Source: an uncultured Acidobacteriota bacterium
Lineage (GTDB): Bacteria > Acidobacteriota > UBA890
Length of the DNA stretch: 64,000 bases
Assembly (NCBI GenBank): GCA_964430745.1
Contig: CAYSHI010000304.1
Coordinates: 5,180 to 69,179, forward strand
Reading direction: 5' to 3'
Below are positions 2,685-33,757 of the stretch, piece after piece. Under the pieces are notes generated by a model. That model saw nothing but the letters and a program-made list of their open reading frames with translations, was not told the DNA's origin and did no database searches. Numbering within the stretch: position 1 is the stretch's first letter; each line of letters opens with the position of its first letter. The position numbers and the translations under genes are program-made.

Positions 2685-3482
2685 ATGCTGCGCAAGCGCA
2701 TCATCGTTTGCCTCGACGTCCGCGACGGAGAGGTGGTCAAGGGCGTGAAGTTCGTCGAGCTCCGGCACATTGGCGATCCGGCGACGCTCGCCGCCCGCTA
2801 CCAGGAGGAGGGTGCCGACGAGGTCGTGCTTCTGGACATCTCCGCGTCGAGTGACGGACGCAAGACAATGCTCGACGTGGTCCGGCGGACGGCGGAACAA
2901 CTCTTCGTGCCGCTGACTGTCGGTGGCGGCATCAATTCGCTCGACGATATCGCCCGCGTCCTGCGGGCGGGCGCCGACAAGGTGAGCATCAACACCGCGG
3001 CGGTCCAAGCGCCGTCCTTGCTGACGCAGGCGGCCGCTCGTTTCGGTAGCCAGTGCGTGGTGGCGAGCATCGATGCAAAGCTCGAGGGCGACGAATCATC
3101 CGGGCGGCCGGTGCCGAGCGGCTATCGCGTCTTCACGCACGGAGGGAGGACGGCGACAGGCCTCGACGCCATCGAGTGGGCCGCGCAGTGCGCGGAGCTC
3201 GGGGCCGGCGAGATTCTGCTCACCGCGATCGAGAACGACGGCGGCCGCCACGGTTACGATCTGGTGCTGACCCGGGCGGTGGTCGAGGCCGTCTCGGTAC
3301 CGGTGGTCGCCAGCGGCGGCGCGGGCAACGCCGGCCACATGCGCGACGCGCTGCTTGCCGCAAAAGCCGCTGCCGCGCTCGCGGCGGGAATCTTCCACGA
3401 CGAGGTGGTCAGCGTCGGCGAGGTAAAGAAGATACTGGCGGCTGCAGGGGTTCCCGTGCGGCTCACCGAGGTGGCGGCATGA
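2685..3482 (+). CDS. hisF: imidazole glycerol phosphate synthase cyclase subunit
   Basis: 265 aa; [11 protein letters not shown]...VVKG and SGGAG motifs of HisF. Confidence 0.9.
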
Positions 3483-12288: not shown

Positions 12289-13295
12289 AAGCCTTCGAAT
12301 ACGTTGCTCCGACCAGCGTCGAAGGGGCGGTGAATCGTCTCGAAGAGCGGGCGGGTGAGTCGCAGCCGCTCGCCGGCGGCATGGACATCATCGGACTGAT
12401 GAAAGACTACGTGCTGCAGCCCGAGCGCATCGTCGCGCTGCGCGACGTCGGCGACTTGCGTGGCATCGAACCAACGGCGGACGGCGGACTACGCATCGGC
12501 GCCATGGTGACGGTGGCTGAGATCGCCGCCGACGAGCGCATCCGGGCGAACTGGCCGGCCCTCGCCGCAGCGGCCGGCGAAGTCGGCACGCCGCAGATCC
12601 GCAACCGCGGCACCATCGGCGGCAACCTCTGCCAGCGCCCGCGCTGCTGGTACTTTCGCTCCGAAGCCTTCACCTGCCTGCGCAAGGGCGGGGCCGCGTG
12701 CTTCGCCGTCGACGGCGACAATCGCTACCACGCCATCTTCGACACCGCCCCCTGCCCCATCGTGCATCCATCGAACTGCGCCATCGCGCTGCAGGCATAC
12801 GGGGCCGGCGTCACCGTTGCGGGGCCCGGCACCGCCGACGAGCCGGTCAGGCTCGAGAGCATGTCGATGGCCGACTTCTTCGTCCGCCCGGCGCGCAACA
12901 TCCGCCGCGAGAACGTGCTGACCGAAGATCAGATCGTCACCTCGATCGAGCTACCCGCGGCCGGCGGCGTGTCCGCTACGTACACCATCAAGCACAAGCA
13001 ATCGCACGACTGGCCGCAAGCGATGGCGACGGCGGTTCTCGAAATGGACGGCACCACCGTGACCTCCGCCAGCATCGTGATGGGCGCGGTGGCGCCGATT
13101 CCGTGGCGCTCGGACGCGGCGGAGCAGTCGATCACCGGCCAGACTGTCTCGGTGACCACCGCCGAGGCAGCCGCCGACGCGGCGGTCGCAGACGCCGAAC
13201 CACTCGACCACAACGCCTACAAGGTGCGGCTCGCTCGCACCGCGGTGAAGCGCGCCATCCTCGAGGCCGCCGGCATCGACTGGGCCACCGGGTAA
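12285..13295 (+). CDS. molybdenum hydroxylase FAD-binding medium subunit
   Basis: 336 aa; ATGA overlap with large subunit; FAD-binding PCMH motifs AGGMDIIGLMK and RNRGTIGGNLCQ (CoxM/PaoB/XdhB-like). Confidence 0.85.
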   Translation: MKAFEYVAPTSVEGAVNRLEERAGESQPLAGGMDIIGLMKDYVLQPERIVALRDVGDLRGIEPTADGGLRIGAMVTVAEIAADERIRANWPALAAAAGEVGTPQIRNRGTIGGNLCQRPRCWYFRSEAFTCLRKGGAACFAVDGDNRYHAIFDTAPCPIVHPSNCAIALQAYGAGVTVAGPGTADEPVRLESMSMADFFVRPARNIRRENVLTEDQIVTSIELPAAGGVSATYTIKHKQSHDWPQAMATAVLEMDGTTVTSASIVMGAVAPIPWRSDAAEQSITGQTVSVTTAEAAADAAVADAEPLDHNAYKVRLARTAVKRAILEAAGIDWATG

Positions 13296-13305
13296 GCAGG
13301 AGGCA

Positions 13306-13533
13306 ATGATGAGCGATTCGAATGTCCAGCCCAAGACGGCCGCCTGCCGCTGCTTTCGCACGCGCATGATGTTTCTCCCGGAGCAAGAAGCCGACCCGCA
13401 TACCTACGGCTTCGAGTTATCCGATGTGGGCCATGTCTGGTGCCAGAAGACGCTCCGCGTGATGGGCCCCGATGACGGGTTGGTGGCCGAGGAGAAGTGC
13501 GAGCCGGGAAGGCAGTGCTTCGAGGGCTTCTGA
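13306..13533 (+). CDS. small Cys-rich hypothetical protein (75 aa)
   Basis: Good RBS aggagg 8 bp upstream of ATG; 5 Cys (CRCF...C...C..C); no recognisable family. Confidence 0.4.
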   Translation: MMSDSNVQPKTAACRCFRTRMMFLPEQEADPHTYGFELSDVGHVWCQKTLRVMGPDDGLVAEEKCEPGRQCFEGF

Positions 13534-13616
13534 TTCGACCCCGTTCGGTTCCAGCCGCGTAAATCACGCCCCCGCAGGCTGATTTTGTCAGCCCTGCCCG
13601 ACGCCCGGGGTAGTGT

Positions 13617-13888
13617 TAGTGTGCTGTCTCCAACATAGCTTGACACTTGCAGAGGGAATTGCGGGCGAGATCAAGGAAGGGCGAGGAAGGCGATGCTTCG
13701 GCATCGTCGACGAGCCCTGACGCCGAGATCGCGCGCAATCTCCTCTGCCCGCAGGGTAGCGGCGGGACGGGGCGATTCCTTTGTCGCGGCCCCTCGACGA
13801 TGTTTGAACATCGCCGTCGTCGCCTCTCCGCGGACTCGCCCCGTCGCGCTCGCTACAAGTGTCAAGCTATGTTGGAGACAGCACACTA
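13617..13888. repeat. perfect 33-bp inverted repeat (13617-13649 / 13856-13888) flanking a 206-bp imperfectly palindromic core; MITE-like or cruciform element
   Basis: Left arm tagtgtgctgtctccaacatagcttgacacttg is the exact reverse complement of the right arm. The inner arms are also near-reverse-complementary, each with its own hairpin (gatgcttcggcatc / gatgtttgaacatc). Track ORFs beginning MSSYVGDSTL on both strands are mirror artefacts. Confidence 0.8.
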
Positions 13889-13958
13889 GAGTCGGTTTCT
13901 CGTCGCCCCTTGTCTGTCGAAATCACGATCACGCGGAGTCAAGATGGAGAACGTTACG

Positions 13959-14624
13959 ATGCGGAAAACTGCTGCCTGGACGGTGCTTGTAACCCTGGCG
14001 ATCTCGTCGATCGCGATTGCCGCGCCCACGTCGGACCTCGAAGGAGTCTACGTGGAGGCTCGCTCGGCGCAGGTGTTCATCGGCGGCTGCATCTGGAACT
14101 CCGAAGCCATGACGATAGGGCGCGAGGCGGTCATGGCATGGCGAATCGACAAGGGCTCCATCGAGGGTGTCGACGTCGCCGGTCTTTCGATCGTGGCCGC
14201 GATCGCCGGAGACGAGAACCTGGCGATCAATCCCGAAGCCGCCCGACGCACCGTTCTGTTTGTCGACCACCATGCGAGCAATGCGCAGCAGGAGGCGCTC
14301 GCCGACCGCTACGCGACGGACAACGCTCGCATGTTCGGCCAGGTAATCGAAGTCGTCGCCGTGCCGATCTCCTTCGTGGACACGCCCGAGGGCTATCGGG
14401 TGAACGCCGGCGACCAGGTGGAGCTCGAGGCCAAGGCGCTGCACGTCGATCACAAGGGCCTCAATCAGTGCGGTGAGGCACAGTGGTACGAGCCCTTCGT
14501 CGCGCTGAACGATTCCACTCTGGGCATCGCCGTCGAGCATTCCTATCAGGGCAAGACGCTCAGCACGCGGTGGAGCGACCCCGACAAGCAAAGCGCATTC
14601 TTCGGCCGCTTCGGCTCCTCATAG
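13959..14624 (+). CDS. secreted hypothetical protein
   Basis: Signal peptide MRKTAAWTVLVTLAISSIAIAAP; no recognised motif. Start taken at the second ATG of track ORF 13944. Confidence 0.55.
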   Translation: MRKTAAWTVLVTLAISSIAIAAPTSDLEGVYVEARSAQVFIGGCIWNSEAMTIGREAVMAWRIDKGSIEGVDVAGLSIVAAIAGDENLAINPEAARRTVLFVDHHASNAQQEALADRYATDNARMFGQVIEVVAVPISFVDTPEGYRVNAGDQVELEAKALHVDHKGLNQCGEAQWYEPFVALNDSTLGIAVEHSYQGKTLSTRWSDPDKQSAFFGRFGSS

Positions 14625-23401: not shown

Positions 23402-23520
23402 GCGAGCGCGGAGAGGGGCGATGGCTGCGTTGCGCTTGTTTCGATCGCTTCCGCGTACTGATGTACGCGTCCGCTCACGAAGACGGCGCGCGCCTTGCCC
23501 TCGCCCCTCTCCGCGCCCGC
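23402..23520. repeat. 20-bp inverted repeat (19/20) separated by 79 bp between convergent genes
   Basis: gcgagcgcggagaggggcga ... tcgcccctctccgcgcccgc; the spacer holds a further hairpin cgcgtactgatgtacgcg; probable structured terminator region. Confidence 0.4.
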
Positions 23521-33393: not shown

Positions 33394-33521
33394 TCGAGAA
33401 AAGTGACGGACGAGCGGCCGCCGGACCGGCCGCCGGCCTGGGAGTCGAGCGAGGGGTCCCCTGGTTTTTCCCCTTCCGTCCAACGGTCATCCCATTTGGC
33501 GAGCCGGCCCGACCGCCGCTC
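33394..33521. repeat. perfect 16-bp inverted repeat gtgacggacgagcggc / gccgctcgtccgtcac with 96-bp spacer, between convergent genes
   Basis: Exact reverse complements; the spacer is itself GC-rich and partially self-complementary. Confidence 0.4.
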
Positions 33522-33757
33522 GTCCGTCACGCCCATCATAGTTAGCAAGCGCGATGCCAAACCGGGGGCGGCGCTGCTGCTCGCGCTCTCGCAAGGAGCC
33601 GAAACCTCCGTAGACGTGGCCTCGGGCCCGCTACGGGTCCTCGAAAAACGAAACTTCGGGCACCGAGAGACCTCGCCACGTGTCCGAAGAGCGGCAAGTG
33701 TCCGCATGTCGACGCCCGCCGGCGGTCACATCGTGGGATGGGAATGACGCTATGTCG

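Follow-up and report, generated by a model that had tools for sequence, protein, structure and literature searches.

In a 64,000-nucleotide stretch of DNA from an uncultured Acidobacteriota bacterium (the window), a palindrome lies between a set of molybdenum-hydroxylase genes and a gene for a DUF1326 protein. A sequence-only reading had proposed either that its arms are the terminal inverted repeats of a non-autonomous transposable element or that it marks a structured regulatory RNA or DNA element, and the locus raises the question of which of the two it is. Our analysis indicates that it is very probably a 268-bp miniature inverted-repeat transposable element (MITE), which duplicates TA upon insertion and belongs to a family derived from insertion sequences (IS) of the IS630/Tc1-mariner family. 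As expected of a MITE, it is short and without a transposase, has terminal inverted repeats, shows a TA duplication when filled and empty sites are compared, and has copies at unrelated sites. Its derivation is indicated by ends that resemble those of IS630-family IS and by insertion at TA, with CTAG preferred.

Boundaries of the element and its insertion site

The arms, at 13617-13649 and 13856-13888, are complementary to each other at 33 of 33 positions, as had been stated from the sequence alone, and pair at 97% when extended to 36 nt (repeat finder). With up to three mismatches permitted, they are the only two matches to the arm in the 64-kb window, against a chance expectation of 0. The TTGACA hexamer previously noticed within each arm was located at 13640-13645 (plus strand) and 13860-13865 (minus strand), facing inward in both cases. 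The element measures 268 bp and has 64% G+C; counting the TA at each end, it occupies 272 bp. Because of this small size, and because tblastn with a related IS transposase found no transposase in the 64-kb window, the element appears to be non-autonomous. The features of the locus are listed below.

13309..13533, plus strand: conserved 74-aa ORF, the last of the molybdenum-hydroxylase cluster, outside the element (same gene order in L024, L025 and L026)
13617..13618, no strand: TA, left copy of the duplicated target dinucleotide (junction alignment with the empty sites L025 and L024)
13619..13649, plus strand: left terminal inverted repeat, 31 nt (33 nt with TA), including TTGACA (33/33 complementarity; match to the IS left end)
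13650..13752, no strand: left inner hairpin, about 100 nt, imperfect, apex GATG-CTTCGG-CATC at 13692-13705 (inverted repeat; MFE folds; copies)
13753..13855, no strand: right inner hairpin, about 100 nt, imperfect, apex GATG-TTTGAA-CATC at 13799-13812 (inverted repeat; copies)
13856..13886, minus strand: right terminal inverted repeat, copied like the left one from the IS left end, its TTGACA on the minus strand at 13860-13865 (complementarity; IS comparison)
13887..13888, no strand: TA, right copy of the duplicated target dinucleotide (junction alignments; other copies and ISs bounded by TA...TA)
13959..14624, plus strand: DUF1326 gene, probable ATG at 13959, 70 nt 3′ of the element and outside it (Pfam DUF1326, E = 1.9e-16)

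Upstream of the element lie genes for the 2Fe-2S, MoCo-binding and FAD-binding subunits of the molybdenum hydroxylase and a small conserved ORF; downstream, the DUF1326 gene is followed by one for a 229-aa protein. The genes within about 13 kb of the element are housekeeping genes. The small ORF is on record as 74 aa from 13309, not as 75 aa from 13306, and the exact 336-aa and 75-aa upstream proteins were absent from the records searched. The exact 74-aa protein is encoded on L031 and L032, two contigs that both break inside the element. Translation of the DUF1326 gene probably starts at ATG 13959 and not at the ATG of the longest ORF (13944), since the orthologues are 220 aa long and share a conserved GGAGA ribosome-binding site and a ATGCGGAA start.

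Through close DUF1326 homologues, three syntenic relatives lacking the element were found (L024, L025 and L026), in which the DUF1326 orthologues have 66-84% protein identity. All three share the order of molybdenum-hydroxylase genes, 74-aa ORF, DUF1326 gene and next gene, with an intergenic region of 118-266 nt from which the element is absent. Without the element and one TA, the window's intergenic region comes to about 151 nt and is colinear with the relatives across the junction, and the removal restores their site, TGTTAGAGTC. Deleting 13619-13888 from the window leaves GGGGTAGTGT-TA-GAGTCGG, which corresponds to the empty sites GGGGCGATGC-TA-GAGTCAG in L025 and GGGTGATGT-TA-GACTTGG in L024. 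Since the filled site minus the element aligns with the empty sites, insertion took place at the TA of a TTAG/CTAG target, with duplication of the TA. The search for empty sites, which had been suggested as a test of the transposon proposal, was thus positive at the orthologous position in three relatives, with TA as the target-site duplication. A 6-bp direct repeat, TAGTGT, had also been reported to abut the left arm. It is present in tandem (13611-13616 and 13617-13622), but the relatives have CGATGC or TGATGT where the window has the flanking TAGTGT, which belongs to the native flank and is not a target-site duplication.

The palindrome represents mobile DNA that arrived recently at this locus rather than a regulatory device conserved in the molybdenum-hydroxylase/DUF1326 neighborhood, and annotation and comparative work on the locus can treat it as mobile DNA.

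The native intergenic region itself contains a 15-nt direct repeat that flanks the insertion (13561-13575, AAATCACGCCCCCGC; 13920-13934, AAATCACGATCACGC; 80% identical). Its upstream copy sits in a block kept in the relatives, TAAATCA[A/C]GCC..CGCAGGC, and this conserved block may be a regulatory site.

Copies of the family and the origin of the arms

Public metagenome contigs and genomes were scanned for the family with a 20-mer from the arm. Matches came from 19 metagenome contigs and from a single genome. The latter, an Acidobacteriota MAG, has one copy by exact 20-mer match and is the sole representative genome holding the element. Judged by unrelated flanks, these matches represent no fewer than 10 and no more than 16 distinct loci. 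Additional copies, the result that a BLASTN search was expected to give for a mobile element, were therefore present with approximately 10 to 16 unrelated flanks in the metagenome contigs and the MAG. BLAST of pieces of the window showed arms 100% identical in nearly all loci and interiors 91-100% identical, and none of the other element loci shared the window's own flanks. With the ends oriented alike, homology sets in abruptly at the junction of (C/T)TA and GTGTGCT, and every outer flank is different. The genes in these flanks are mutually unrelated; they encode a sigma-54 activator, an FtsX permease, a Yip1 protein, a metallophosphoesterase and a DUF4136 protein. Together with the extra copies, the empty sites and the match to an IS630-family left end described below support the proposal that the arms are terminal inverted repeats of a non-autonomous element, and we infer from these comparisons that the element is mobile. 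The metagenome contigs further suggest that a single genome can contain multiple copies.

Four copies are complete (those of the window, L023, L016 and L012), and a further 12 are represented by single ends. L023, L016 and L012 are 93-96% identical to the window copy, and some part-copies are 100% identical; L012 is a 175-bp variant from which the left hairpin is deleted. One complete copy is embedded in a 1.4-Mb MAG contig. The left hairpin was detected at 91-100% identity in L005, L014, L015, L016, L022 and L023, and the right hairpin at 90-98% identity in L006, L008, L012, L016, L018, L019 and L023. Among 11 copies and part-copies, none of the 66 arm columns varies.

Every copy has TA at its ends, and the complete copies L012, L016 and L023 all read TA...TA. 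Among 19 distinct ends, the TA is adjoined on its outer side by C in 15, by T in 3 and by G in 1. The target appears to be CTAG-like, and the excess of C agrees with the CTAG preference that Tenzen & Ohtsubo 1991 reported for IS630, as related in PMC2170065. For ISY100, duplication of TA was demonstrated in vitro (PMC2170065).

Roughly one-third of the distinct MITE ends coincide exactly with stop codons of real genes (L012, 2305-2307 and 2477-2479; L015, 3309-3311; L020, 58-60; L023, 4878-4880; L005, 1659-1661). The regenerated stop codon TAG consists of the duplicated TA and the first G of the element. In L012, the convergent sigma-54 activator and FtsX permease genes both finish in the terminal TAGs of the element. 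As a background, 3.4% of all TA views in the window end a long open frame, compared to 16% of the CTA[AG] sites; because of the latter proportion, the CTAG preference accounts for most of the coincidence.

Several further arm matches were of other kinds. L009 carries at 2289-2321 a solo arm that adjoins a protease-like gene; with neither a partner arm nor a transposase, it was rejected as an autonomous parent and is a degenerate member of the family. L004 (1196-1222) and L017 (18-44) represent one locus, in which the outermost arm bases are CATCTAGGCT compared to the usual TAGTGTGCT. L011 (2843-2865) and L013 (1125-1147), contigs of 40% G+C from a different kind of sample, match the arm exactly over 23 nt but have no inverted partner and no transposase at these matches; they were treated as unrelated to the family, and the match is probably due to chance or to an unrelated element. 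In L021 (approximately 3260-3290), a full copy is immediately adjoined on its outer side by a 19-bp mini-palindrome, GTGTCCTGTCCCAGCACAC, with TA on each side. In this palindrome, about 10 nt from the left end are fused to about 8 nt from the right end; it resembles either what an internal deletion leaves of an element or the scar of excision repair, with a second element inserted at its TA. A plasmid or phage origin was considered and rejected: there was no plasmid match, the phage matches were 45-nt chance hits to Rhodococcus tape-measure genes, and the arm was absent from viral contigs.

The check for a cognate transposase, proposed together with the transposon reading, led to a type of IS630-family IS whose left end matches the arm. 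L007 contains at 240-1383 a 1.14-kb IS bounded by CTA...TAG, in which the arm is followed by a 360-aa ORF and not by hairpins. This ORF matches NCBIfam transpos_IS630 (1.7e-83) and Pfam DDE_3 (2e-23) and has helix-turn-helix domains. The left end of the IS agrees with the arm at 27 of 29 positions, including TTGACA. Four related ISs (L027-L030), with transposases 86-92% identical and the same ends, are likewise bounded by CTA...TAG; the left end of L028 agrees with the arm at 26 of 27 positions. ISs of the L007/L028 type come from similar metagenomes. Since the right end of the IS has only its first 16-18 nt in common with the arm, both MITE arms are copies of the IS left end. Among the ISs compared, none had an end exactly equal to the arm (GTGTGCTGTCTCCAACATAGCTTGACA). 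In the ISs, TTGACA stands 17 nt upstream of TAGGCT, just before the start of the transposase gene, and looks like the −35 element of the transposase promoter, with TAGGCT resembling a −10 element. The MITE has no −10 element at 17-nt spacing from TTGACA.

For the IS630 family, in vitro and in vivo work (PMC2170065 and references therein) has established that the transposase binds the ends and that transposition proceeds by cut-and-paste, with duplication of TA and a preference for CTAG. The element presumably would be mobilized in the same way. An IS630-family transposase encoded elsewhere would bind both arms, excise the element by double-strand cuts and paste it into TA, preferably CTAG, duplicating the TA. 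At this locus, the element entered a TTAG in the intergenic stretch that separates the 74-aa ORF from the DUF1326 gene, and it did so only in the lineage to which this genome belongs. The perfection of the arms could mean that only intact-ended copies multiply and that the family is young. The interior hairpins would be carried along as cargo of no demonstrated function, and after the insertion, the interior would have been flipped in one of two nearly identical strains (see below).

The precedent for a bacterial MITE of IS630 origin is RUP (repeat unit of pneumococcus), an element mobilized by IS630-Spn1, which likewise has ends resembling those of an IS630-family IS and inserts at TA (PMC2229807). 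By analogy, the two would share the logic of a non-autonomous element that borrows an IS630-type transposase. They show no sequence relationship, however. RUP is 107 bp long and A+T-rich, with nine contiguous repeat pairs and about 108 copies in one genome, whereas the element described here has 268 bp, 64% G+C, perfect arms of 31-33 bp that both come from the left end of the IS, and two additional internal hairpins of about 100 nt. With IS630 and ISY100, it has in common the TA duplication and the CTAG-like preference (PMC2170065); these are ISs of 1.1-1.2 kb with transposase-bound ends and a single DDE transposase (PMC2170065), and L007 and L027-L030 are members of the IS630 family according to NCBIfam. 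The window element, in contrast, encodes no transposase and is a derivative, not an IS. The Correia/NEMIS elements of Neisseria are also small, with long terminal inverted repeats (24-26 bp) and a TA at each terminus; long stem-loops form in their transcripts, and their insertions lie near genes (PMC2229807). They differ in their length (107-155 bp), the frequent presence of an IHF site, the lack of an identified parent IS and their unrelated sequences, and effects on transcripts are documented for the Correia elements alone. Bacterial MITEs have been reviewed as A+T-rich and shorter than 200 bp (PMC2229807), of which the present element, with its G+C content, its length and its two long internal hairpins, is atypical. 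This kind of mobile DNA is ordinary, and what is unusual here is the combination of 33-bp perfect arms, a G+C-rich two-hairpin interior and a documented inversion. The comparison documents an IS630-derived MITE family, with parent IS type, target and boundaries defined, in uncultured Acidobacteriota-like genomes; the host phylum is poorly studied.

Orientation of the interior

When the exact DUF1326 protein was looked up, three short metagenome contigs were retrieved, each ending within the element, and every contig of the window's locus breaks there. One of the three, L002, showed 0 mismatches over 260 nt to an allele flipped in silico, compared to 81 mismatches to the window orientation. Beyond the flip, L002 and the window differ at a single base in 1795 nt. 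L031, assembled like L002 from sample ERZ27295545, reads from the left flank through the arm into the right hairpin in reverse-complemented form. The contigs at the left junction (L031) and at the right junction (L002) are thus both flipped and mutually consistent. L003 (sample ERZ27295567) has the orientation of the window. A flip was seen at one of the three loci sampled more than once.

The breaks within the element indicate that assemblers struggle at this site, and MITEs with long perfect arms do break metagenome assemblies. Both the family and the flip might thus be artefacts of metagenome assembly at an inverted repeat, with only one locus in one orientation existing in reality. We give next to no credence to this explanation. 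In contigs of different projects, complete copies are embedded, each between two different flanks; the flanking genes are real and differ between copies, and the flip is seen alike in two independent contigs from one sample. Moreover, at k = 141 and with a repeat of 33 bp, the junction k-mers should derive from the reads, if the assembler works as we suppose. We infer that the inversion is real, because both flipped contigs were assembled at k = 141 and the repeat has a length of just 33 bp.

Short segments bounded by inverted repeats that occur in both orientations in natural populations are known as invertons (fimS and the invertible promoters of Bacteroides), and the two orientations of the present interior (flipped in L031 and L002, unflipped in L003 and the window) are a feature in common with them. 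In such a case, a site-specific recombinase would flip the 206-bp interior between the 33-bp repeats and thereby switch the expression of the DUF1326 operon. The occurrence of both orientations at the window's locus, in strains 1 base apart in 1795, speaks for this possibility, and it was initially adopted as the main explanation on account of the flipped interior. It was dropped because of the unrelated flanks, the empty sites and the IS630-derived arms, and we consider it very unlikely. Invertons are fixed chromosomal switches with an internal promoter and a dedicated recombinase. The segment studied here, however, is missing from the same position in relatives and adjoins unrelated genes at at least 10 loci, and its repeats correspond to one end of an IS630-family IS. 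A search for tyrosine and serine recombinases within about 13 kb found none, as judged by the absence of Phage_integrase and Resolvase domains among the 19 ORFs searched between 2685 and 27491. A consensus scan of both strands of 13200-14300 gave 0 sigma-70-like sites and hence no orientation-dependent promoter match. A single flip beside a single point difference in 1.8 kb requires only a low rate, for which recombination between 33-bp repeats would suffice, and the flip was confined to one of the three loci mentioned above.

For the IS630-derived MITE, the interior was most likely inverted by recombination or template switching between the perfect arms, without a regulatory purpose; recombination at the arms is favored because no recombinase is encoded nearby. 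If MITE interiors can flip in this way, read-based inverton finders would score them as phase-variable switches, although no dedicated switch is needed. A mobile invertible cassette is conceivable as well, in which the arms would have two roles, as the ends bound by the transposase and as the sites of crossover in frequent flipping, a reaction that the IS630-type transposase itself might catalyze. This idea seems to us quite improbable. If it were true, a change of orientation would alter the effect of the two unlike hairpins on neighboring genes, e.g., through one-way termination or mRNA processing, and each new insertion would create a new phase-variable locus. Literature searches for invertons together with MITEs, and for Acidobacteria together with IS630 and MITE, returned nothing.

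Interior hairpins and their fold

The interior halves had been described as reverse complements of each other, although imperfect ones. This holds for the central ~45 nt, to which the similarity between the halves is restricted. The chief symmetry lies elsewhere: over the whole length, the left half and the reverse-complemented right half match at 65 of 103 positions, a value equal to the best of 200 shuffles. Each half instead pairs with itself (13649-13668 with 13729-13748 at 85%, and 13762-13779 with 13832-13849 at 89%; repeat finder) and, as had been noticed, carries a small hairpin of its own, GATGCTTCGGCATC at 13692-13705 and GATGTTTGAACATC at 13799-13812. The interior thus consists mainly of two separate hairpins of about 100 nt and not of a single palindrome. 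Because the strongest symmetry is found within each half, the fold is Y-shaped, with a stem of 33-40 bp that bears two imperfect hairpins of about 100 nt; the left inner hairpin is visible in the MFE folds. Folding of both RNA strands, one of the checks suggested earlier, showed them to be far more stable than shuffled sequences (z = −13.9 and −13.6), and the same was true for DNA (z = −11.5).

This stability on both strands, the intergenic position 70 nt upstream of a gene, and the closing pair of the apical hairpins (C-G in one and T-A in the other, both still paired) would all fit a locally evolved element, such as a cis-regulatory RNA, a terminator, an insulator or a cruciform protein-binding site, that serves the molybdenum-hydroxylase and DUF1326 genes and has a fold kept by selection. 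The divergence of the two hairpins had indeed been taken as a sign of selection on structure. Among 11 copies and part-copies, however, 0 compensatory base-pair changes were detected, i.e., no pair had changed on both sides, and the left stem of the window copy shows three uncompensated changes absent from the other copies. Variable columns amounted to 12 of 146 at paired and 14 of 60 at unpaired interior positions. The copies give no apparent sign of a selected fold and may simply be young. No Rfam family matched at or above its gathering threshold; the best hit, the plant miRNA hairpin MIR1437, reached 45.5 bits compared to a gathering score of 168. The region contains no terminator-like consensus site. 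Relatives with the same synteny lack the element, and the same sequence occurs in unrelated contexts. On this comparative evidence, the empty orthologous sites appear to largely refute a local structured element, and the proposal of a regulatory RNA or DNA element fails on its absence from the orthologous position, the lack of an Rfam match and the lack of covariation; we regard it as having a very slim chance of being correct. A retron-like or other structured RNA was discarded because there was no Rfam match, no reverse transcriptase nearby and no covariation. An origin of the interior from an IS or from other hairpins of the window was also discarded, as BLAST showed that the IS shares the arms only and gave nothing significant within the window.

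The tips of the two hairpins behave differently from the rest of the element. At both tips, the six bases between GATG and CATC vary in nearly every copy (13696-13701 and 13803-13808 in the window, and the same positions in L006, L008, L012, L015, L016, L018, L019, L022 and L023). Four variants occur among 5 independent left tips and six among 8 right tips, in contrast to the invariant arms, while the remaining interior differs by a few percent. In L016, the right tip reads as the left tip reverse-complemented, pointing to conversion between the hairpins.

Two other long imperfect hairpins are present in the window just 3′ of genes (23402-23520 and 33403-33530), with arms of 24-28 nt and spacers of about 71 nt. 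They are unrelated in sequence to the MITE interior and may represent terminators or another type of repeat.
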